This document shows, piece after piece, positions 2,880 to 52,167 of a stretch of 64,000 bases of DNA (the stretch's first letter is position 1; each line of letters opens with the position of its first letter). The stretch is from a phage: sequence record PZ242158.1; one strand, 5' to 3'. The position numbers and the translations under genes are program-made. The notes under the pieces are model-generated. The model saw only the letters and a list, made by a program, of their open reading frames with translations, did no database searches and was not told where the DNA came from.

Positions 2880-5303
2880 ATGAGCATGTGGTCGTTCGAT
2901 TTTGAGTCATCCGGTTTGCTGGAAGACCCAGATCTTTATTATCACTGCGGCCTGTTTAAAGAGCTGAATAAGAACCGTTTTATGCTGTTCCTTCCTCTGA
3001 ATGACCGCACACACTACTCCGAGGAGGATATAGAGAAGGCCAAGAACTTTATTCTGGCAAAGAAAACTCTTTATAAGGATTTTGAAGTTCGCATAGCAGA
3101 TTTTTCGGAGTTGGAAGGTTGGCTTACAGGAAATTCCGACTGGTCACCAACAGCTTTGAACTGCCATAACTGCTACAGTTATGACTTTATGCTGATGGAG
3201 AGATTATCCGGTATTCATTTTGATATGTTCCGTGATCCTAAATGCATGGGGACTATCAACGACCACCAGGTTAACCTGTTTGATACGTTGGCTATGAGCC
3301 GAATCTTGTGGCCTGATCGCCCTTTACCAAAAGGTTGTCCGGACGCTGTATTCAACCCGGTTACTAAGAAAATGCAACCTGTTGGTCCTCACGGCCTTAT
3401 GGCATGGGGCTACGCCCTTGGTAACCAGAAAGTTCAAATTGATGACTGGCGCGATCTTCCGCTGTGGAAATATGTGGATCGTGTGTTCGAGGACGTTATC
3501 ATCCAGGAGTTGCTCTGGAAAGAGTTGGTAGCGGAATCAAAAGGTGTATTCTACGGCAAATCTGACATGCAGAACTTTATGTATGACCCTGCCAAAGAGA
3601 AGCCTAAAGGATTCAAGAAGATTACCTGGAAGAATGCATTACGCCGAGGCATGCTGCAGCATTTCCTGATGGAGCTGCAGGCTCGACAGGGTGTGTATTT
3701 CGACATAGATGGGGCTATTGCTTTACGTGACCGCTGCGATGCGTGGATGAAAGAGATCGCTGATCGTGTTGAACCACAACTTCCTTTAAAAGAGTTATCA
3801 ATGTCTCAGCGGCCTAAGTTCCCTGAAAAGCCGTTTAACCAGGATGGGACAATCTCCAATAATGGTTGGAAATGGTTAAAAGACAAGCTTGGCTACCCTG
3901 TGGACATGAGTGCTTTAGAATTCAAAGCTCCTCCTAAGCGAGCATTTACCTCCACAGGAGATGTCAGTAAGATGGGGATAAAATGGTGTGAAGAGATGGG
4001 CTGTAAAGACCCTGACAAGATGGCGGATTTCTTGAGGGGCTATATCAAGGGCACCTCCACACCACAACCTTTACCTAAAGAGCTAATGGATCAGGCAATA
4101 AGTGATCTACAGCAGAAGCGAATGCCTGACTGCAAGATACCTATGAAAATCAGTAATCAGGACGATATTAAGCGATACCTGATCAGTGCTGGTTGGCTTC
4201 CGACAATGTGGAGAACTAAGGATGTAACTAAAGACAGCAAGAAGAAAGCTCTACCTGATGCAGATGTTGATGCACGAGTGTATGCATATATGGACGAGCT
4301 TTTAGAGTCAGAGTATTGTGACCTAATTATCAACTTCTGGAACAAAACTGATGCTAAGTTCCAGACAACCGTGCACAAGTTCCGAAGCTTTCCTAACTCC
4401 GAAAGGATTAAAAAGGAAGTATTCGGGAAAATACGTAGAAAAGCTAGGGCACTTATTACTTCTCCGCAACTGAAAGATACGTTTGGACACCTATGCCCGA
4501 ATCTTGAAAAATTGAACGGAGAGATGGCTAAAGATATCGTCTTGTGGTTATCATTGCGAAACCGCAGATCGGTCCTTGATCCAATCAAGGAGGATAAGGT
4601 TGATACTGGTCTTCTTAATCACCCACGTTTGAAGATTGACCATAAGCTTCCTGCTAAAAGTTCTGGATTAACAAACACTTCCCGACAGAAACACAGTATT
4701 TGTGCAAACATGCCTAAACCATCTCCTAAAGTGGTTATGGGTAAAGAGATGCGTAGTCTGTGGGGTGTTCCTCCAGGATACTTTGAGATCGGTATTGACG
4801 GGTCCAACTTAGAGCAGCTTATCGGGGCTTGGGGTGCCTTTGAGTTCGACAACGGCCTGTATTACGATGTTGTAAGTAACGGGGACGCACACCAAAACAA
4901 TGCTGAGGCATATACAAAAGTAGCAGGTAGAGAGGTGTCTCGTAACGACGGTAAACCTATCACGTATGGGGTTATGTATGGGGCACAAAAAGATAAAGTT
5001 GCAGATATGCTGGACATCTCTCCAGAGTTGGGACAAAGGGTAATCGATGCACTCTGGGATGCCAACCCTGGTCTTAAGGGGCGTAAAGAAGATCTGGAGA
5101 AATTCTGGGAAGCAACGGGTAAGAAGTTTATCTACTCTTTTGATGGTCATGCTATCTGGACCCGATCTAAACACTCTTTACTTAATGCATACCAACAAAA
5201 TGGCGGCGCATCGTTGTGTGACTTAGTTGGGATACTCATGCACCATCAAATGGTGAAGCGTGGGTGGTACGATGAAGGTGTTCGTCGTATTATCTATTAC
5301 CAT
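2880..5303 (+). CDS. DNA polymerase, family A, exon 1
   Basis: AAGGAG RBS; exo motifs FDFESSG and HNCYSYD; motif B KPITYGVMYG; ORF stops one codon after the His where motif C (HDE) is expected. Confidence 0.8.
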
Positions 5304-43875: not shown

Positions 43876-44226
43876 TTACTGCAACAGTTTTTCAATAGCC
43901 GCTTCCATGCTGCTTGCAACAGCCTGAACTCGGATATTCATCTCTTCTTGGTGGATCAGCTCCTTAAGCTCTTTAATGGTAAATTCTTTAGAGAAACCTT
44001 CCACCATAATCTTGTGCAAGGCTTCTTGCGTGTCTACTTGCAAGAACTTTTCCAGTTTGTTGGCAGAGGCTTCTAAATCAGCCCGAATACGAGGGTCATC
44101 TGTGCGATTCAGCATTAGGCGTAAGCCATCAAGATTAGTAGAAATAGCATCTGCATGTTGAGTAACTAACCGTGGCAAAATGAGGTCTACAAACTTATTA
44201 GCCAAATCGATACGTTCTTGTGTCAC
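43876..44226 (-). CDS. hypothetical protein
   Basis: GTG start overlapping upstream stop (GTGA). Confidence 0.5.
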   Translation of the reverse strand: MTQERIDLANKFVDLILPRLVTQHADAISTNLDGLRLMLNRTDDPRIRADLEASANKLEKFLQVDTQEALHKIMVEGFSKEFTIKELKELIHQEEMNIRVQAVASSMEAAIEKLLQ

Positions 44227-44336
44227 TGTTGCACCCCCTCTTCATCTTCATGATGTTTCTTTTCACGCTTGTGTTTTTTCTTAAGCTCAAGCGCAATCTC
44301 TTTCTTGTACGCCTTCTTCAAGGCTTTTTTAGCCAT
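44223..44336 (-). CDS. small basic protein (37 aa)
   Basis: GGAGGTG RBS; MAKKALKKAYKKEIALELKKKHKREKKHHEDEEGVQQ. Confidence 0.45.
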   Translation of the reverse strand: MAKKALKKAYKKEIALELKKKHKREKKHHEDEEGVQQ

Positions 44337-44367
44337 TTGGCACCTCCTCTGCTTTCATTTTACGATA

Positions 44368-44397
44368 ATTATACCTATCTAAACAAAGCTTTGTCAA
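44368..44397 (-). promoter_or_regulatory. sigma70-like promoter (minus strand)
   Basis: On the minus strand: TTGACA, 18 bp, TATAAT. Confidence 0.5.
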
Positions 44398-44400
44398 CAA

Positions 44401-44874
44401 CTAGTCTACCTGAACCCAACCGCCTGATACTTTTTTAAACATTCTTTGGTTATCACTGCCTCGGAACGGTTTCTTGGTTGGTAAATCTTTTACATACTTA
44501 CCGTCAATGATGATATCAGCCAGTTTAAGAACATCACTAGAGATATGGTCAAATGTGAACCCAGTATATACAAGAATAGTTTTCTTGTCACCAAATTTTT
44601 CCTTAATTTTCTCCATCAGGCTAATAATACCTGGCTCATTATAGTATGCTAAGGGTTCTCCACCCAGCAGAGAGATACCGCACACAGACGGGTTATCCAG
44701 ATCTGACAAGATTTTTTGCAAATCTTCTTCAGTGAACTCCCTCCCCTTATCTTTTGACCAAAATGCCTGATTAAAGCAACCAGGGCAAGCGTGTGGGCAC
44801 CCAGATACCCACAAGGCAGTTCTAATACCTGGCCCTTCTGTGTAAGATACTTCTGTGTATCCGACAATGTTCAT
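44401..44874 (-). CDS. nrdG: anaerobic ribonucleotide reductase activating protein (radical SAM)
   Basis: GCPHACPGC radical-SAM cysteine cluster near the N-terminus; size and position next to nrdD. Confidence 0.85.
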   Translation of the reverse strand: MNIVGYTEVSYTEGPGIRTALWVSGCPHACPGCFNQAFWSKDKGREFTEEDLQKILSDLDNPSVCGISLLGGEPLAYYNEPGIISLMEKIKEKFGDKKTILVYTGFTFDHISSDVLKLADIIIDGKYVKDLPTKKPFRGSDNQRMFKKVSGGWVQVD

Positions 44875-44987
44875 AGATACTCCGTATCACATTCAGGGCA
44901 ATGCCAAATAAAATCGTCCAGTGCCTTGCACCAACGAAGATTGCAACGACAACCACACTTGCAAATTTTATAAATGCCTGATGACAT
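44871..44987 (-). CDS. small Cys-rich zinc-ribbon-like protein (38 aa)
   Basis: AAGGAGGTG RBS; 8 Cys (CKCGCRC...CPEC); stop overlaps nrdG start (ATGA). Confidence 0.45.
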   Translation of the reverse strand: MSSGIYKICKCGCRCNLRWCKALDDFIWHCPECDTEYL

Positions 44988-45035
44988 GCTGCACCTCCTT
45001 TAGTTTATAACATGTTTAAAGGTTGATATATGGCT

Positions 45036-46028
45036 CTACAGGTTATTACCTGTCCTATGTTTACAACAAATCTCTCTATGCGCTGATTCTACCATACTGA
45101 ACACTTCAGGTCTGTAGTTAAAGAATTCGGTACTACCATCAAATTTTACAGGGAAGTTTATTTTATATTTACTGAAGGCTTTGTGCATAGATTTTTCTAC
45201 AGCCAGCATGTTTTCAGTTGATCCTTCCAACGTTTTCACTATGTGAAGATCGCGGATACCAGCTCCAGATCTTTGTGCACTTTTAAGTATCTGGTCTCTT
45301 CGCTTACTTTCATTATGACTGACCCCTATTTTCATAAATGTAGGTACTTCTGGATCATCAACCATAATGTAGAGTTTTCCGTTATCGTGTGATAAAAATC
45401 CTGTTTTAGCGCATCTAGGGCAAGCATGTCCCTGCTTAAGACTGCTTGGTACGGTTAACCATGTGTGGCTACAACCTTTACAGCAGCACAGGACTTTCTT
45501 ATCCCACCCAATAATTTCTTCCAATATCTCAACATAAGGATTTCTACTTCTTATGGACTCAACCCACTTTTCGTGTGGTGATGTTTTACTTTGTGAGATT
45601 CTTGACCCCTTGCAAACTGGACAACCTCTTTTCAAATTTATATGGTTATCAGGTGTCTGTGTAAAGTGATTTCCACAAGTGTTGCAGATTATTTCTACCC
45701 TGTCTTTGCAAGTCTTGTAGTATACGAGAGAGTAGTCATATTTATCTCCATGGATTTCTTTGGCCCTTTCTACAAATTTAAGACCTTTATTACACTTTGC
45801 AGCACGAGAAAGTTTTGCACAAAAAGGACAACCACGACCTTGCAAGTGTTTACAAGGTGCTTGCATAAAATCCCCATGGATTTGGCAGGTAATGCAAACC
45901 TTCGCATAGCAATCCACGTACACTGTTTTCGTGTAATCGTATTTATAACCGTGAATGATTTTCGCCTTCTCTATAAACTCTTCTGTTGATAATTTAGCCA
46001 TTTCTTGTTTCCTAACTTCCCTAAACAT
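45036..46028 (-). CDS. homing-endonuclease-like protein (repeated zinc-binding modules plus T5orf172/GIY-YIG-like C-terminal domain)
   Basis: Three repeats of HG-KYDYS...C..C...G.F...P..H...GCP.C; C-terminal GKLYIM...KIGVS block. Confidence 0.5.
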   Translation of the reverse strand: MFREVRKQEMAKLSTEEFIEKAKIIHGYKYDYTKTVYVDCYAKVCITCQIHGDFMQAPCKHLQGRGCPFCAKLSRAAKCNKGLKFVERAKEIHGDKYDYSLVYYKTCKDRVEIICNTCGNHFTQTPDNHINLKRGCPVCKGSRISQSKTSPHEKWVESIRSRNPYVEILEEIIGWDKKVLCCCKGCSHTWLTVPSSLKQGHACPRCAKTGFLSHDNGKLYIMVDDPEVPTFMKIGVSHNESKRRDQILKSAQRSGAGIRDLHIVKTLEGSTENMLAVEKSMHKAFSKYKINFPVKFDGSTEFFNYRPEVFSMVESAHREICCKHRTGNNL

Positions 46029-46065
46029 CTGTATAGTGCCACATCCTTGTGGCTTTTGTCAAGTA

Positions 46066-47328
46066 TCAGCAACCACAACTTCCGTAGTGCTTAACTCGCT
46101 CGATAACTTCCGCTTGCTTACCTTTATTGTAAGGACGGGAGTTAGGACTGGAAAGATATCCAGACACTCTTCGGATCACTGAGATATATTGTTCATCGTG
46201 GCATCCGCACGCAGGGCAGCAGAACCCTTTAGCTGTTGCACTGAACTCACCAGAGAAACCACACTTGAGACATTTATCCACAGGTTGGTTAATACCAAAA
46301 TACATAATATGTTTATACCCGAAGTCAACAAGAGCCTCTAAAGCATCCAGGTTGTTTTTCAGGTTAGGTGTCTCTACGTATCCAATGTTGCCACCAGAGG
46401 AGATCATAGCAAAACCTTCCTCATACTCCCACTTATCAAAAGGAGAGCTATTTATCCACACTGGCTGATGGAAACTGTTGGTGAGATATTCATGCTCGTG
46501 CTTCAACACTTCCGGGTATTCACGATCCAGACAGGTTGCAGCTTTATAGCATAGACTCTCAGAAGGAGTGCCGTACAAGCTAAATGCTAGTCTACTTTCC
46601 TTCTTGTATCGCTCACAAGCATCTCTCATGTGCTGAAGGATTCCAAGAGCTAAAGCCTTGTCACCCTCTCTGCCCAAAATCTGACAGGTTTCATACACAC
46701 CAATATACCCAATACTGATGGAAGCGTACCCGTCATAGAAGAGTTTATCAATACTCTCTTCAGGATCCAGGCGAGCAAGAGCGCCTTCACACCACATGAT
46801 GGGGTTCTGCCCTGCCTTTGTTCCTTTTAGACGGTTAACCCTTACAAGGTGAGCCTCATATGCAAGATCCAAGTATTCGTCAAGAACTGCAAAGAAATCA
46901 ACACCTTCCGTCTTAGCTTTTGCCGCAATCATTGGCAGGTTAAGGCTAACAACGCCTAAGTTAAATCTGCCAAGGTATTTCTCCTCGCCTGTTTCCAAGT
47001 CATTGTATTTGCTAAGAAAACTCCTGCAACCCATGCTAGTTACTTTGCCATCTGTCGAGCCTGTCACTTTTCTATTTAGTGGTACAGATACGAAGTCAGG
47101 ATAGATACGTTCTGCACAGCATTCCAGAGCTAATCGTTTCAAATCATAGTTAGGATCCCCAGGGTTCATGTTGACACCCTCTTCCAGGAAGAACAGCACT
47201 TTAGGGAACACAGGTGTGATACGTTCTTCACCAAGACCCATTTTGTGGACTTTCAAGTAATTTTTGGTAATCATTCTACCAAAGACCGAAGTGTCCAAAC
47301 CTAAACTTAATGTGATAAAAGGGGTTTG
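46066..47328 (-). CDS. nrdD: anaerobic ribonucleoside-triphosphate reductase, exon 2
   Basis: Begins QTPFITLSLGL (aligns to E. coli NrdD QTPFVTFGFGL); C-terminal zinc site CLKCGF...CPACGC and glycyl-radical region RRVSGYLS. Confidence 0.8.
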   Translation of the reverse strand, partial: QTPFITLSLGLDTSVFGRMITKNYLKVHKMGLGEERITPVFPKVLFFLEEGVNMNPGDPNYDLKRLALECCAERIYPDFVSVPLNRKVTGSTDGKVTSMGCRSFLSKYNDLETGEEKYLGRFNLGVVSLNLPMIAAKAKTEGVDFFAVLDEYLDLAYEAHLVRVNRLKGTKAGQNPIMWCEGALARLDPEESIDKLFYDGYASISIGYIGVYETCQILGREGDKALALGILQHMRDACERYKKESRLAFSLYGTPSESLCYKAATCLDREYPEVLKHEHEYLTNSFHQPVWINSSPFDKWEYEEGFAMISSGGNIGYVETPNLKNNLDALEALVDFGYKHIMYFGINQPVDKCLKCGFSGEFSATAKGFCCPACGCHDEQYISVIRRVSGYLSSPNSRPYNKGKQAEVIERVKHYGSCGC

Positions 47329-47585
47329 CGGTCCCCACCCTTATGTTTCCACAAGGCCAGACTATCTCTTGCCTGAAATCACACCGTGTGATTCTTAATC
47401 AGACCCCTGCGTTTCGGAATCTTCCATAATCCCTACACCAAAAGGTTAGTCGTTACAACCGCCTCACTCCTTGTGAAGCTAGTCACGGGATTGGCATAGC
47501 TTTCGCCTTAGCGTTCCCCGTTAGCCAGCGATCAGCTGACCCCTCATACTGAGGTTAGCAGAGTTTTAAAACGGCCAGTTTGTTA
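47329..47585 (-). other. ORF-less group I intron in nrdD (~257 nt)
   Basis: Exon 1 ends ...VNG then in-frame TAA; 5' exon ends in U, intron ends in G; guide GCCGUU pairs with exon AACGGU; P/Q/R/S-like elements present; boundaries approximate. Confidence 0.65.
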
Positions 47586-48446
47586 ACCGTTTACCGAGGT
47601 TAGTGTGTTGATCTGATAAAGCAACGTCTGCATGCTGTCAAACACGTCTTTATCTGTCATTTGCATTGCAACAGTTTCAGCATCCGGCAACCAATGTTCC
47701 TGGCAAAATTTAAGGTTCTTCTCATAGGTTGCTTCAGCATACTGTGCCAGATAATGATCAATATGGCTCATAGTCTGACCACCATATTGAGCACTAGCTA
47801 CCGCGCTAGAGATTTGACTAAGGATTGTTGTTGCAACCCCTATTGACTTCGGCTTACTGACATGGGCGTTGCCAATGTTGAATCCGTTTTCCAACATATC
47901 TGGATAATTTACCAAACAACAGTTTGTTAACGGACTGATCAAGTAGTCAAGATCATGCACATGGATGAAGCCTTTATTGTGCTCTTCTGAAACACGGTCT
48001 GGCAGGATCTGTGTTGATGCAAGGTGTTTGCTAAGGATGCCTGCAAGCAGGTCACGATGAGTGTGTACATGATTAGTGGGCTTATTTGCGTTTTCTTTTG
48101 TAAATTCATCACAAGTTCGATCCAAGAAGCCACTAATATCTGCAAGCAGTTTTCCACCTGCCTCTCTGTTATTATCTCTTGTCTGTCTATACTGGATGTA
48201 TTCTCTGGCTGCACATTTTAAACCCATATCCATAAGAGCATCTTCAACAAGGATATGGATATTTTTTACAGAGATCGTGCACTGGTCGGTTGGTAGATTG
48301 TTAGCAACAACTTCATTAACCGCGCAGGCGATCCGGTAAGCTTCTTCTTCAGTATGTCCAGACTCAAGTAAGGCGGACTCTGCCGCCTTGATCACCTTAA
48401 TTCCGTTATAGAACTCTTCTCTACCGTCCCGTTTTACAACTTTCAC
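47586..48446 (-). CDS. nrdD: anaerobic ribonucleoside-triphosphate reductase, exon 1
   Basis: ATP-cone-like N-terminus MKVVKRDGREEFY; ends ...NTLTSVNG where E. coli NrdD continues ANGQTPF. Confidence 0.8.
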
Positions 48447-48721
48447 TTTTTCTCTCCAAAACCATTCTTAACAAAAGAGATGAAATCGTCGGCACCGCCT
48501 ATATGGACACTTTCAAGATTGCTTTCTAAGAAGATCTGCGGCAACGTTCTGGGGACAATTGGACTGCACTTCTCAATAAGCTCTTCTTTTGTGTAGCCCT
48601 CGCCAAGTGTCTTATATACAAAAGGCAGACCTTTGCTGATTGCAAATTCTTTTGCTCTGACACAATGTGGGCAGTTATCCTTACCGTAAATGATGATGAA
48701 AAAAGATTTTTCGCAGCTCAT
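48443..48721 (-). CDS. glutaredoxin
   Basis: CPHC active site, TLPQIF and GGADD glutaredoxin-fold motifs. Confidence 0.75.
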   Translation of the reverse strand: MSCEKSFFIIIYGKDNCPHCVRAKEFAISKGLPFVYKTLGEGYTKEELIEKCSPIVPRTLPQIFLESNLESVHIGGADDFISFVKNGFGEKK

Positions 48722-48724
48722 ATA

Positions 48725-49813
48725 TTAAAACTCCCAAATTTCTTCTTCAGCGTCGTTAACAGTTGTGTTGACGCGGTAGTCAGTGTTCGACATTTCTTGG
48801 TTCGCCGTCTGTTGTAATGAAGGTTTCATCCACACCTGCATAAACGGTAGCGGGTCCTTTGTTGGCGGCACAAAGTCTTTGTCGATGTCGTAGTAATCAT
48901 AAATCGGTGAGCAGTTATAGTCAACCCACTCTTTAAGCAACGGTGAGTTAAGACCTATAATCGCTCTTCCTTCGCTGAAAATATAGTCACTCCAACCGTA
49001 CTCTTTGGTTCGTACTTCATCAAGAATCTCTTTTAACTCCCCCTTTATCTCAAGGAAGCTTTTCTCCCATGCGGGATCATTAAGCAAGATATCAATGATG
49101 GCAAAATCACCTTTCGAATGTAGCATTTCGTCAAGCATGATTTTTTGAACAAGCTGCGCCACCTGAACAAAGATACCCTGTTCAGCTACTGCGAAAGTGC
49201 ATGCAAAACTTGCAATAAACTCAATACTTTCCAGAGCTAAAAGCGCAAAAAGCGCTCTAAGAATGCATTTCCGCACAATATCTTCTTCAACACTAGAAGG
49301 ATCCAGGCGGTATTTTGCACCAATAACCTCAAGCTCTTGCATGTATTTGACAATAACGCCGGATCTGCTCAGAACGTTTTGGTTTTCCTGAATCTCTTCT
49401 ATAATCTCACGGGCATTGGGGAGGCATTGTCTAACAATCTCTGAGTAAGTTAGTGCGTGAAGAACTTCAATCTCTGACTGTTTCATCAATAGAGTGAAAA
49501 GCTCACTATTAGTGATGAATGGTGAAAAGAGGCAGATGATAGATCTTGCCGCAACGCTATCAGCCTCCCATTGCCACATCAAGGTCTGCACCATCACGTC
49601 ATAAGTTGACTTTGAGCATGTTACAAAATCTGAAATAGATTGCGACAAATCCACTTCATCCTCTGCCCAATCTTGCTCTTTTTGTTTTTTGTATAGTTCA
49701 AACAGTTGTGGATATTTTTTGTTGATAGAGTCGTACATACCCATTTGCTGTCCCAGAAACAGCGGATAGTCACCAGTTTTATGAGCGGTGTTCTCAGCAT
49801 TAAATACAGCCAT
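48725..49813 (-). CDS. nrdB: ribonucleotide reductase small subunit
   Basis: Ferritin-like R2 sequence; start set at Met after AGAGGTAG RBS (track ORF extends to 49873). Confidence 0.85.
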   Translation of the reverse strand: MAVFNAENTAHKTGDYPLFLGQQMGMYDSINKKYPQLFELYKKQKEQDWAEDEVDLSQSISDFVTCSKSTYDVMVQTLMWQWEADSVAARSIICLFSPFITNSELFTLLMKQSEIEVLHALTYSEIVRQCLPNAREIIEEIQENQNVLSRSGVIVKYMQELEVIGAKYRLDPSSVEEDIVRKCILRALFALLALESIEFIASFACTFAVAEQGIFVQVAQLVQKIMLDEMLHSKGDFAIIDILLNDPAWEKSFLEIKGELKEILDEVRTKEYGWSDYIFSEGRAIIGLNSPLLKEWVDYNCSPIYDYYDIDKDFVPPTKDPLPFMQVWMKPSLQQTANQEMSNTDYRVNTTVNDAEEEIWEF

Positions 49814-49830
49814 TATTCTACCTCTAAAAT

Positions 49831-49844
49831 GGGGCCGAAGCCCC
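49831..49844 (-). other. intergenic GC hairpin with tetraloop between nrdA and nrdB
   Basis: GGGGC-TTCG-GCCCC on the minus strand. Confidence 0.4.
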
Positions 49845-49851
49845 TTTAAAA

Positions 49852-52167
49852 TTATAGTGCACAGCTTTCGCAATACGGATCTTCAACTGAACTATCTGCA
49901 ATCAAAGGATAGTTCTTTCTGGTTTCATCTTCAGCCTGTTTCTTGGCATGAAGTTCCTCTGCCAAGGAGTCACCAGCACCAACCCTAGAGTTTAAATAAT
50001 ACCATGTCTTCATCCCGAATTTAGTGGCACGGATAAGGTACCCTAACTGCTCCTTCATTGAAATTTTACCATCTTTCAACTTGGTGTAGTCTATGTATAA
50101 ATCCGCGCTGATTGCCTGACCTGTGAATTTTTGAATCACGGCATACATATCGATCATGTCGTTAGTATCAACGTCCCAAGCCGAGGTGTAATACTCTTTC
50201 AACTCATCATAGTCAGGAACGATAAACAGCACCTGCCCTTGTGGCGACTTTTTAAAGATAATGTGCTCACGGACAGGATAAACCCCGTTAGTGGTGTTTG
50301 TTGCCAGCGAAGAGCTTTCATTAGGCATATATGCTTCAAGAACGCTATTACGTAGCCCACCATTCTCAATGATTTCTTTACGTAACCCTTCCCAATCCTG
50401 TTTAAGAGAAGGATCTTTCACCACGCTATCGACCTCTTTGTTATAGGTGTCGATTGGTAACCAACCTTCTGGATATTTTGTTTTATGCATCCACTCGCAG
50501 ACACCACGCTCTTTTGCCAACCGTAAACTTGCCTTATGCAAGCTGTAGCTGTGAAGTTCTGCAAGATCGTGAACGAGCTGTTTACTTTCAGGAGACCCGT
50601 AAGTAACCTTGTGGCTGGCAATAAAATGTGCAACATTGGTAAGGCCAACCCCGATGGATCTGCGTTTTTTAACTGTGCTTTCCATATTTTCATACGGATA
50701 TGTCATGATTTCCATAACATTGTCAATCATAAGCACCGTATAGTATGCAACATCCTCATACTCCTCTGGAGTAACCCTCCCAGCTACAAGAGATGACAGG
50801 AAGCACAATGCAACCTCTCCATCATCAGCATCGTACTTGAAGATATTACGCATATCTGAATAGCCTTTTGTCGGGAGGGCTATTTCTGCACACAGGTTGC
50901 TTGAATAGATCACATCTTTAAAAGGTGTATGTCTATTCATCTCATCTGTCCAGTATACGTACAGCCTTCCCACCTCAGTGCGCTGCGTGATCAGTTCAAC
51001 AGCAAGATCTCTAGCTCGGATCCATGTTTTAGGAATACTGTCATCTTTAGCAATACGATCAACCTCTGCATCAAACTCCTCCATAGACATGGTGAAGATA
51101 CCCTCATGCAGTTGAGGCGCGTGCTTATAAGAAACAAGCATCCAATCTAAATTCTTAGCCACACGGTTGATAAACGACCTATTAATACCGATAGAGTAGT
51201 CCATGGTGTTGATTCTTTTTGAAGCAACAGTCATAGGGTTTCTCAAACGGATTAGCTCATCAATCTGCGGGTCCAGTGCAAGGAATGATACTGTTGCAGA
51301 ACCACCACGTGATTGTTGTCTGTTCTCCTTAACCCCAGCATCAATACCTCGATAATATGGAATCTTACCCATATGTTTAATAGTGTTACCACGAACACCA
51401 TCGCCTGCAGATCTTGAGGATAAGTAGTAGCCGATACCTGCTTGATTAACCGTCATTGTGTACGCAACTTCACGTGCCACACCAATAGATTTTGCTGTAT
51501 CGTCAGCTTTTATTACACAACAAGATGCATACCCTGTCTTACCTGTGCGCAGCCCGTTTAAGTACGGTGTCGGGGCATTGATCTTTAAGTCGGACAGATA
51601 AGTGTATAATTTTACAACATCGTTGATACGACGTTCTTTCGGCATATTCTTCATGACAGCCATTGCTATCCCCATAAACATCATCTGGGGAGATTCAAAC
51701 AAGGTGTCTTTAAGAGTATCCTTGATCCCATATTTGTCGCGAAACTGTTTAAGGACTGCATAGCCATAACCGAGATCTTTACTGTGGTCAATAACAGCGT
51801 CTAAAGTGTTTAGCTCGGTAAAGCTATAGCCCATATCCTCCCAATACCCTTTCTCAACCATGGTATTGTAAAATGATGGTAAGGAAGGGATCTTTGTAAA
51901 CCCTCCAAAAGCCTCTTTATAAATCTGACCAATAAGAACACGACCCGCCATACGGGAATGTGCTTCGTCTTTACGGCTAACACAGGAGTCTATGATAGCT
52001 TGGTTAACTTCTTTGGTTGTACATCCATCATACAGTCGTTTGTATGCATCCAGTGCAATGTGTGACCAATTGCCGTTACCGTCGTCACCGAAAATAGCTG
52101 CCTTATTTAAACGTTCTGGATCGAATGCCACTTCACATCCGTTGCTTTTAATTACCTTGGTGATCAA
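49852..52167 (-). CDS. nrdA: ribonucleotide reductase large subunit (class Ia)
   Basis: 771 aa with N-terminal ATP-cone; SSNLCAEIALPT active-site region; C-terminal Cys pair ...YCESCAL. Confidence 0.9.
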   Translation of the reverse strand: MITKVIKSNGCEVAFDPERLNKAAIFGDDGNGNWSHIALDAYKRLYDGCTTKEVNQAIIDSCVSRKDEAHSRMAGRVLIGQIYKEAFGGFTKIPSLPSFYNTMVEKGYWEDMGYSFTELNTLDAVIDHSKDLGYGYAVLKQFRDKYGIKDTLKDTLFESPQMMFMGIAMAVMKNMPKERRINDVVKLYTYLSDLKINAPTPYLNGLRTGKTGYASCCVIKADDTAKSIGVAREVAYTMTVNQAGIGYYLSSRSAGDGVRGNTIKHMGKIPYYRGIDAGVKENRQQSRGGSATVSFLALDPQIDELIRLRNPMTVASKRINTMDYSIGINRSFINRVAKNLDWMLVSYKHAPQLHEGIFTMSMEEFDAEVDRIAKDDSIPKTWIRARDLAVELITQRTEVGRLYVYWTDEMNRHTPFKDVIYSSNLCAEIALPTKGYSDMRNIFKYDADDGEVALCFLSSLVAGRVTPEEYEDVAYYTVLMIDNVMEIMTYPYENMESTVKKRRSIGVGLTNVAHFIASHKVTYGSPESKQLVHDLAELHSYSLHKASLRLAKERGVCEWMHKTKYPEGWLPIDTYNKEVDSVVKDPSLKQDWEGLRKEIIENGGLRNSVLEAYMPNESSSLATNTTNGVYPVREHIIFKKSPQGQVLFIVPDYDELKEYYTSAWDVDTNDMIDMYAVIQKFTGQAISADLYIDYTKLKDGKISMKEQLGYLIRATKFGMKTWYYLNSRVGAGDSLAEELHAKKQAEDETRKNYPLIADSSVEDPYCESCAL

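Follow-up and report, generated by a model that had tools for sequence, protein, structure and literature searches.

Two neighbours between nrdD and nrdG of a Vequintavirus: a predicted homing-endonuclease gene and a cysteine-rich mini-gene probably independent of ribonucleotide reductase

Between nrdD and nrdG, the genes of the anaerobic ribonucleotide reductase (RNR), a Vequintavirus (rV5-like coliphage) encodes two open reading frames (ORFs) of 330 and 38 residues, and the question is whether either of them belongs to the reductase system beside which it is found. A sequence-only reading had regarded the locus as invaded twice and the 330-aa protein as homing-endonuclease-like, and had proposed that the 38-aa ORF (the micro-ORF in the following) could be a zinc-ribbon partner or a regulator of the anaerobic RNR. 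The DNA analysed is a stretch of 64,000 nucleotides (record PZ242158.1; the window), which is 99.7% identical to Escherichia phage nom. The nrd locus lies on the minus strand throughout and has the gene order nrdA, nrdB, grx, nrdD exon 1, intron, nrdD exon 2, 330-aa ORF, 38-aa ORF, and nrdG, with the GTG start of nrdD exon 1 overlapping the grx stop. The two ORFs are probably two unrelated things that are adjacent in the nrdD-nrdG interval, namely a homing-endonuclease gene (HEG) and an RNR-independent mobile mini-gene. The features are the following:

44401..44874, minus strand: nrdG, class III RNR activase of 157 aa, radical SAM (Pfam Fer4_12, E=9.5e-43, and Radical_SAM)
44871..44987, minus strand: micro-ORF of 38 aa with seven invariant Cys, PHROG 20137, ATGA overlap with nrdG
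44993..44999, minus strand: Shine-Dalgarno sequence AGGAGGT of the micro-ORF, 5 nt 5' of its ATG, also kept in HEG-less relatives (from sequence and alignments)
45000..46032, minus strand: HEG cassette of ~1033 bp (blastn blocks stop at 44999 and restart at 46033)
45036..46028, minus strand: predicted T5orf172/GIY-YIG free-standing HEG, maximal ORF of 330 aa
45093..45383, minus strand: T5orf172 (GIY-YIG superfamily) nuclease domain, aa 216-312
45405..45578, minus strand: zinc module 3, aa 151-208, ligands CCCKGC...CPRC
45606..45785, minus strand: zinc module 2, aa 82-141, ligands CNTC...CPVC (Pfam DUF4379, E=7e-7, residues 106-141)
45813..45989, minus strand: zinc module 1, aa 14-72, ligands CITC...CPFC, CapR/DUF723-like
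46038..46053, minus strand: hairpin GCCACAAGGATGTGGC, directly past the nrdD stop
46066..47328, minus strand: nrdD exon 2, glycyl-radical domain and C-terminal Zn ribbon (Pfam NRDD and Gly_radical; tblastn against a NrdD without interruption at this site)
47329..47585, minus strand: probable ORF-less group I intron in nrdD, 257 nt (Rfam RF00028)
47586..48446, minus strand: nrdD exon 1, ATP-cone and N-terminal NRDD region

The notion of a twofold invasion holds, because in addition to the HEG a probable group I intron is found in nrdD. The Rfam model RF00028 aligns to it over all of its positions (1-253 of 253; E=1.5e-4) with a score of 29.3 bits, which is below the gathering score of 50. Exon 1 ends with ...GGT at 47586, the intron starts after the U, and its terminal G is located at 47329. 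Removal of the intron restores the reading frame, and the exon junction SVNG/QTPF matches the NrdD of L007, which is uninterrupted at this site. In relatives the same intron contains an HNH ORF, which is missing in the window.

The HEG probably does not start at the first codon of the maximal ORF but at M10 (window position 46001), resulting in a protein of 321 aa. An AGGA is present 8 nt upstream of M10, the homologues begin there, the annotation of nom agrees, and the pLDDT of below 50 for residues 1-10 of the AF2 model also points to this start. The C-terminal domain is recognised by PF10544 (T5orf172; 27.2 bits, cutoff 20) and PF13455 (MUG113; 22.6 bits, cutoff 22.3), and PHROG endonuclease families match the protein as well. 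There are 2681 homologues, many of which are titled 'GIY-YIG nuclease family protein', and PF10544, PF14311, PF05265, and PF21817 are found among them. The AF2 model has a pLDDT of 87 and shows the alpha/beta fold of the GIY-YIG nucleases, which are also its best structural matches. Pfam, PHROG, and the model thus agree with the earlier description as a T5orf172/GIY-YIG protein with three zinc modules. The three modules are of the type CxxC...CPxC. Module 1 folds into a helix plus a beta-hairpin in the AF2 model, and homologues carry PF05265/PF14311. Module 2 clearly repeats module 1 (46% identity, E=1e-14), and its DUF4379 match exceeds the Pfam cutoff. Module 3 is divergent in sequence from both, with no similarity to module 2 in BLASTP, and is assigned by layout alone, sharing helix, beta-hairpin, and knuckle in the AF2 model; its C203 and C206 are invariant. 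In the nuclease domain E278 is invariant, as are Y220, K233, G235, and E301 over 35 sequences, in which R243 is nearly so. The protein has the conserved catalytic Tyr/Arg/Glu set, where the catalytic roles are given by analogy and not by structural superposition. Judged by its sequence, the 330-aa ORF is a free-standing HEG that falls into the T5orf172 branch within the GIY-YIG superfamily, and its cleavage and homing are presumed.

That the gene is an insertion is evident from close relatives with an empty site. The site is contiguous in 91 of the 120 Vequintavirus records and interrupted in about 29. The phages HeinrichReichert and L005 have a spacer of 63 nt at this position, ~20 nt of which are found where the cassette would lie, and the flanks of their empty site are ~98.7% identical to the window, whereas WalterGehring carries the HEG. 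At least five T5orf172 alleles are known here, with two to four zinc modules each and with the modules shuffled. The insertion point is identical in five alleles, right after the GTGGCA of the nrdD-terminal hairpin, and every allele is placed immediately 3' of the hairpin behind nrdD. By its allele content this position is an insertion hot spot for HEGs. The HEG is, by genome comparison, younger than its flanks and evolves independently of them, with 0-4 mismatches to WalterGehring per 200 bp of the gene as opposed to 13-21 for the same length of flanking sequence. The bin adjoining the HEG, which contains the micro-ORF, has 11 mismatches per 200 bp compared to ~2-3 elsewhere, and this excess is only suggestive of an HEG target or a co-conversion zone. 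For homing, a specific DNA site would be recognised by the three zinc-finger modules at the N-terminus (CapR/DUF723/DUF4379 type), and the domain with the GIY-YIG fold at the C-terminus would cut the HEG-less allele of a co-infecting relative. Repair of the cut by recombination would leave a copy of the ~1-kb cassette in the formerly empty site 3' of the nrdD hairpin.

The T5orf172 protein could alternatively be a domesticated DNA-binding regulator or a defence or counter-defence nuclease, and not an active homing endonuclease. Domestication of proteins of the T5orf172/CapR type is reported, with repressors and anti-satellite nucleases as the outcome (PMC8096241 and PMC8263062), and the ICP1/PLE system has co-opted CapR-type zinc-finger and T5orf172 proteins (same papers, and PMC10448857). 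Given such cases a non-homing role is possible, and PADLOC gives weak matches to PDC-S57, a candidate defence family (E=2.5e-4). However, the sporadic distribution, the presence of several alleles at one exact intergenic site, a conservation stronger than that of the flanks, and the intact catalytic residues are typical for an actively mobile selfish gene and less so for a fixed host function, and we regard domestication as very unlikely. With an intron and a free-standing HEG within 1.6 kb and several alleles at one site, the homing-endonuclease part of the locus is useful for understanding Vequintavirus mosaicism.

The micro-ORF is a more useful lead than the HEG because it is tiny, strongly conserved, Cys-rich, and without relatives outside its own family. 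It encodes the peptide MSSGIYKICKCGCRCNLRWCKALDDFIWHCPECDTEYL of 38 aa with seven cysteines (and not eight, as counted earlier). The strong ribosome binding site and the overlap with nrdG that had been noted were both recovered: the micro-ORF is preceded by AGGAGGT, and its stop TGA (44873-44871) overlaps the nrdG ATG (44874-44872) as ATGA, in agreement with translational coupling. In addition, nrdG has its own Shine-Dalgarno sequence, GGAG, within the 3' end of the micro-ORF. Because as many as 111 ORFs with 30 aa or more are present in the surrounding 10 kb, a 38-aa ORF by itself means nothing and it is the conservation that marks the gene. The variable columns of the family are distributed over the codon positions as 8/1/19, and pN/pS is 0.085. 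Between the window and L007 pS is 0.8 and pN is 0.05, the synonymous sites being near saturation. The core of the micro-ORF is ~90% identical between these two and the NrdG proteins only 52%, and thus the micro-ORF is better conserved than NrdG. The copies found in podoviruses are also under purifying selection (pN/pS 0.19). A conserved RNA structure or attenuator does not explain the conservation, as the RNAalifold covariation term is -1.5 kcal/mol and just one of 30 pairs is compensatory; a terminator-like hairpin within the micro-ORF (44934-44918) is weak. By its substitution pattern, the micro-ORF is a genuine protein-coding gene.

The micro-ORF product is a full-length member of PHROG 20137 (E=2e-30, 38 of 38 positions), and many GenBank records annotate it as hypothetical protein. 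The label 'ribonucleotide reductase' of PHROG 20137 appears to derive from records naming the ORF after the neighbouring genes, and profile search, PDB search, and hhalign did not detect homology to any RNR component. A profile search against 1.84 billion proteins retrieved nothing outside the family except one spurious repeat protein (P0014), and scans with Pfam, NCBIfam, and PADLOC gave no matches. This exhaustive search also did not find a relative that would make the micro-ORF a relic of an HEG or a piece of a larger parent. The motif is C-x(1,2)-C-G-C-x-C...C...C-P-x-C, in which neither C-x(1,2)-C nor C-P-x-C varies. It thus contains two zinc-knuckle motifs and three further cysteines, C13, C15, and C20, which are all invariant and suggest a second or an expanded metal site. 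The AF2 model built from an alignment of 11 sequences is unusable (pLDDT 50.6), and therefore metal site and fold are assumptions. Searching the PDB with the profile gave no significant match; it listed only zinc fingers, with E-values of at least 0.7 (PolD DP2, E=0.7).

Several known kinds of small cysteine-rich proteins were compared to the micro-ORF product and rejected. Rubredoxins were neither among the PDB search matches nor matched through Pfam, and hhalign aligned only the 10-residue W-x-CPxC knuckle to rubredoxin sequences, with a probability of 59%. A duplicate of the C-terminal zinc ribbon of NrdD obtained an hhalign probability of 14%, and no NrdD was retrieved in the search of the 1.84 billion proteins. 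A SCIFF-like RiPP precursor does not fit either: the neighbour is a NrdG-type activase of 157 aa (Fer4_12) with no additional domain match, and the micro-ORF is also found beside a ligase in genomes in which neither NrdD nor NrdG is detectable and no radical-SAM enzyme is annotated.

These latter genomes are informative with respect to the role of the micro-ORF. It is present in 122 phage records, of which 121 are from Vequintavirus and one is from a podovirus, while NrdG is encoded in 2147 phage records. Its place is invariably between nrdD and nrdG in the Vequintavirus records as well as the L007 lineage. In phi92, the nearest outgroup checked, nrdD overlaps nrdG directly, and in L006 the two genes are 15 nt apart, the micro-ORF being missing in both. 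As far as these gene orders tell, the micro-ORF was inserted between the two genes earlier than the HEG and in this lineage specifically, and the ATGA overlap would keep nrdG translationally coupled after the insertion. Vequintavirus genomes with the second nrdG allele (WalterGehring, Mangalyan, and A135) have the micro-ORF uncoupled from nrdG, and its sequence is unchanged there although this NrdG is only 54% identical. In the SP6-like podoviruses ACG-C91, L016, L017, and L018 the micro-ORF is located between a nucleotide kinase and a DNA ligase with the same ATGA overlap, and neither nrdD nor nrdG was found in the ACG-C91 genome. This pre-ligase slot of the Vectrevirus is always filled by some small ORF overlapping the ligase ATG, in K1E and vB_EcoP_B by unrelated ones. 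When IMG/VR and metagenome contigs were scanned with DNA patterns, the two known contexts were found and no third one. The micro-ORF behaves as an autonomous, horizontally exchanged small-gene cassette common to Vequintavirus and RNR-less Vectrevirus podoviruses.

Because the micro-ORF is also found in phages without RNR genes, its product is probably not an RNR subunit. It might still be a dedicated accessory of the anaerobic RNR, which would bind NrdG, or else NrdD in its C-terminal region, of either phage or host and might for instance serve the activase as a metal or electron-transfer helper or regulate how the glycyl radical is formed. The position between nrdD and nrdG together with the ATGA coupling is kept in both Vequintavirus and the diverged L007 lineage, the seven invariant cysteines are encoded beside a radical-SAM enzyme, and the rubredoxin-like knuckle mentioned above, although limited to 10 columns, would suit such a helper. 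The conservation above that of NrdG is also consistent with a part in anaerobic nucleotide reduction, possibly via the host enzymes: E. coli, the host of the podoviruses with the micro-ORF, encodes NrdDG as well, and RNR-less podoviruses depend on the host NrdD/NrdG. However, it is hard to reconcile a dedicated accessory with the absence of the micro-ORF from ~2000 other NrdG-encoding phage genomes and from phi92 and L006, with its being under selection and coupled to a ligase in phages without RNR genes, and with its unchanged sequence beside the diverged NrdG allele from which it is uncoupled. Nor was the peptide significantly similar to any solved structure, to the zinc ribbon of NrdD, or to rubredoxin. 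The role as partner or regulator of the anaerobic RNR, as proposed at first, is therefore unsupported, and a dedicated RNR accessory seems unlikely.

An effect mainly in cis, with the micro-ORF as a leader feeding ribosomes to nrdG or ligase by termination-reinitiation and the peptide being functionless, is highly improbable. In its favour, the ATGA overlap is retained in two unrelated contexts and the Vectrevirus slot always has a small ORF overlapping the ligase ATG. Against it, selection at the amino-acid level is strongly purifying with all seven cysteines invariant, the ORF is intact in the three phages in which it is coupled to nothing, and nrdG has a Shine-Dalgarno sequence of its own.

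The RNR-independent mini-gene most likely encodes a stand-alone metal-binding accessory protein of an early or middle DNA-metabolism module, which we infer to act on an E. coli or a nucleic-acid target. In a bolder version, PHROG 20137 with its seven cysteines in 36-54 aa would be a new kind of mobile phage mini-metalloprotein with an E. coli target needed by myoviruses and podoviruses alike, which taken as a whole is distinctly unlikely. Such a protein might bind two zinc ions or an Fe-S cluster, may modulate the glycyl-radical/radical-SAM RNR of host or phage or another enzyme of nucleotide or DNA metabolism, and would have passed between unrelated coliphages in the form of a cassette that is complete in itself and translationally coupled. 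If the product proved to be a host-directed metalloprotein, it would join the few phage micro-proteins that have been characterised. In any case, the copies of RNR-less podoviruses in a swappable slot allow separating context artefact from function and correcting the label 'ribonucleotide reductase'.

Compared with known systems, the micro-ORF shows no sequence difference from the hypothetical proteins of rV5-like phages in PHROG 20137 (e.g. bas58_0182 and JEP1_173). It resembles a 38-aa CxxC...CxxC ORF of K1E in having about 38 aa, two Cys knuckles ~18 residues apart, an acidic C-terminus, and an overlap with the ATG of the downstream gene. However, it has no detectable homology to this ORF or to rubredoxins and contains three more invariant cysteines. 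The HEG differs from the free-standing Seg proteins of T4, I-TevI, and SLX1 in having the nuclease domain at the C-terminus and not at the N-terminus, zinc fingers for DNA binding in place of HTH/NUMOD modules, and K-I-G as the second motif where Y-I-G would be expected. Its nearest counterparts are T5orf172 HEGs with repeated CapR-like zinc fingers, of which 33% have been reported to adjoin RNR genes (PMC10448857). Like the 'tcg' HEGs of ICP1 (Barth et al. 2023, PMC10448857), it has tandem N-terminal zinc fingers as 'beads on a string' and a C-terminal T5orf172 domain, is free-standing and intergenic beside ribonucleotide reductase genes, and varies in repeat number among alleles. It differs from these in being found in Vequintavirus and at another insertion site, and the identity to tcgB is only ~33% and confined to one zinc module. 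The HEG is ordinary and unsurprising, a textbook-style case of how selfish endonuclease genes crowd into the nucleotide-metabolism operons of phages.

Region 44300-48500 of the window is 99.7% identical to Escherichia phage nom, an rV5-like myovirus of the genus Vequintavirus, and matches 122 related records. All features that the sequence-only reading had claimed for the nrd locus were found where it had placed them. The genes are arranged as follows:

49852-52167, minus strand, nrdA
48725-49873, minus strand, nrdB
48443-48721, minus strand, glutaredoxin
47583-48446, minus strand, nrdD exon 1 ORF
between the two nrdD ORFs, minus strand, intron gap
46066-47298, minus strand, nrdD exon 2 ORF
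45036-46028, minus strand, 330-aa ORF
44871-44987, minus strand, 38-aa micro-ORF
44401-44874, minus strand, nrdG

The nrdD ORF with the full ATP-cone starts with a GTG overlapping the glutaredoxin stop (48443-48446); the orthologue bas58_0183, as annotated in BASEL, begins about 210 nt further downstream, which would truncate the ATP-cone. In the nom record, nrdG is called 'putative minor capsid protein' and the micro-ORF is not annotated. A perfect sigma-70 consensus (TTGACA, 18 nt, TATAAT) is located directly downstream of the nrdG stop (44368-44397, minus strand) and precedes a small Lys-rich ORF at 44223-44336.

The micro-ORF has the strong ribosome-binding site that had been proposed (the Shine-Dalgarno sequence AGGAGGT, 5 nt before its ATG), and its stop indeed overlaps the nrdG start as ATGA; the peptide contains seven cysteines and not eight, as had been counted. 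Among ten distinct loci, the variable alignment columns are distributed 8/1/19 over codon positions 1, 2, and 3, and pN/pS is 0.085. The seven cysteines and the motif NLRWCK-LDD-IW-CP-C--EY show no or hardly any variation. When the window is compared with L007, a diverged lineage, synonymous sites are close to saturation (pS 0.82) at a pN of only 0.05, and the micro-ORF core is about 90% identical compared to 52% for NrdG. RNAalifold did not find covarying RNA structure able to account for this conservation. Judged from these substitution patterns, the micro-ORF should be regarded as a genuine gene. It belongs to PHROG 20137 over its full length and is annotated as a hypothetical protein in several GenBank records.

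The suggestion that the peptide is a partner of the anaerobic ribonucleotide reductase (RNR) is not supported. NrdG is encoded by 2147 phage records, and the micro-ORF is present in only 122. In the outgroup phage phi92 nrdD directly overlaps nrdG, and in an unrelated phage contig (L006) the two are separated by 15 nt; the micro-ORF has therefore been inserted, in a specific lineage, between two genes that normally adjoin each other. In addition, nrdG occurs in the Vequintavirus phages as two alleles, that of the window and a second one, with 54% identity to each other. In the genomes with the second allele (WalterGehring, Mangalyan, A135, and the contigs L022 and L024), an 81-aa and a 34-aa ORF are found between the micro-ORF, which ends with TAA and is otherwise unchanged, and nrdG. 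This insert, seen in L003 (2060-2441), L010 (1572-1944), L011, L022, and L024, corresponds in position to the window junction at 44871-44874; its 81-aa ORF belongs to PHROG 3249 and is coupled to nrdG, and the 34-aa ORF is Lys-rich. In P0012, a chimeric protein from the databases, residues 1-20 of the micro-ORF are fused to the 81-aa ORF, which suggests recombination at this junction.

The micro-ORF is also present, at about 84% nucleotide identity, in SP6-like Vectrevirus podoviruses, namely ACG-C91, which contains neither nrdD nor nrdG, and three metagenomic contigs. There, it is located between a DUF3310 nucleotide kinase and the DNA ligase with its stop overlapping the ligase ATG, and purifying selection persists (pN/pS 0.19). 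Close Vectrevirus relatives with about 98.5% identical flanks have other small ORFs at this position, for example an unrelated 38-aa CxxC...CxxC protein (a zinc ribbon) in K1E and a 57-aa Cys-free protein in vB_EcoP_B, and each of these ORFs, like that of ACG-C91, overlaps the ligase start codon. Such ORFs were located at:

899-1015 in contig L013
899-1072 in contig L014
3980-4108 in contig L004

In Vectrevirus (K1E/SP6-like) podoviruses, the gap between nucleotide kinase and DNA ligase is a swappable small-ORF slot. No third genomic context came up when IMG/VR and metagenomes were scanned with DNA patterns. It could be imagined that the micro-ORF protein acts on RNR chemistry through host enzymes, given its strict position and very high conservation in the myoviruses, but we consider this unlikely. 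The most economical reading is that the micro-ORF is an autonomous, horizontally exchanged gene for a putative small metal-binding protein, whose ATGA coupling would keep up the translation of whichever essential gene is located downstream.

No match to the micro-ORF was found in Pfam, NCBIfam, or PADLOC. When 5.8 billion proteins were searched by word index, 12 clusters of 36-62 aa were retrieved; 1.84 billion representatives, searched exhaustively with a HMMER profile, yielded no relatives outside the micro-ORF's own family. The micro-ORF is therefore a genuine orphan, although already catalogued. The AF2 model was unusable. The likeness to rubredoxin is confined to one knuckle, there is hardly any similarity to the NrdD zinc ribbon, and both assignments were rejected. 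The name 'ribonucleotide reductase' is given to the 38-aa ORF in several records and in PHROG 20137. No homology to an RNR component can be detected, and the PHROG label appears to be a context artefact, akin to the label 'DNA ligase' of PHROG 13972, to which the K1E small ORF has a weak match (E=2.8e-4).

The locus had been described as invaded twice, and this is right because nrdD contains an intron besides the inserted 330-aa gene. According to an alignment with the NrdD of L007, which has no interruption here, the exons are joined at ...SVNG|QTPF...; the intron is the following feature:

47329-47585, minus strand, nrdD intron of 257 nt

The intron begins after a U, has a terminal G, and its first codon is an in-frame stop. 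The full-length Rfam match to group I introns (29.3 bits, E=1.5e-4) is below the gathering threshold. There is no ORF inside the window's intron; its counterparts in WalterGehring, Mangalyan, and JEP1 contain a 534-nt HNH endonuclease gene. Because the JEP1 nrdD is annotated as three pieces, it has a second intron. L006, which has no micro-ORF ahead of nrdG, contains a classical I-TevI-like GIY-YIG endonuclease gene, apparently intron-encoded, between two nrdD pieces (3358-4011), illustrating how often nrdD gets targeted.

Concerning the 330-aa protein, the start is probably M10 (321 aa), because the nom record and the homologues begin there and the first 10 residues have a pLDDT below 50. Of its three CxxC...CPxC modules, the first two share 46% identity (E=1e-14); module 3 has no detectable sequence similarity to them and shares their helix/beta-hairpin layout in the structure model. 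In Pfam, module 2 is DUF4379, and the C-terminus matches T5orf172 and MUG113, both over the curated cutoffs. At an E value of at most 1e-10 there are 2681 database homologues, many of which bear the name 'GIY-YIG nuclease family protein' and contain PF10544, PF14311, and PF05265. Y220, K233, G235, and E301 do not vary, R243 hardly does, and these residues would represent the expected GIY, (Y/K)IG, Arg, and Glu set. Module layout, Pfam matches, and homologues thus agree with the proposed zinc modules and T5orf172/GIY-YIG-like C-terminus.

Comparing the synteny with and without the insert showed the gene to be an insertion at one exact site. The nrdD stop and the micro-ORF are only 63 nt apart in HeinrichReichert and an IMG/VR relative, compared to 1078 nt in the window and WalterGehring. 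Of 120 records, 91 have the site empty and uninterrupted. All genomes with the gene part from the empty allele at one nucleotide, right after the post-nrdD hairpin GCCACAAGGATGTGGCA. At least five alleles, which have the nuclease domain in common and vary from two to four zinc modules, occupy this site:

330 aa, window and WalterGehring
386 aa, Mangalyan
386 aa, SophiaRose
311 aa, JEP1
about 310 aa, A135

The window and WalterGehring differ by 0-4 mismatches per 200 bp inside the gene, compared to 13-19 at the nrdD 3' end and 17-21 at the intron borders, and therefore the cassette is younger than its backbones. Against L002, which lacks the gene, the window has about 2-3 mismatches per 200 bp and a peak of 11 at 44800-44999, the micro-ORF/nrdG-start bin abutting the insertion, which could be a recognition or co-conversion zone.

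The 330-aa ORF is a mobile T5orf172 homing-endonuclease gene, and we infer that its protein performs cleavage and homing. This reading is right but ordinary, as family and behaviour have already been published: T5orf172 homing-endonuclease genes have repeated CapR/DUF723-like zinc fingers with recombining repeats, and 33% of them adjoin RNR genes (PMC10448857), a description that the gene in the window fits.
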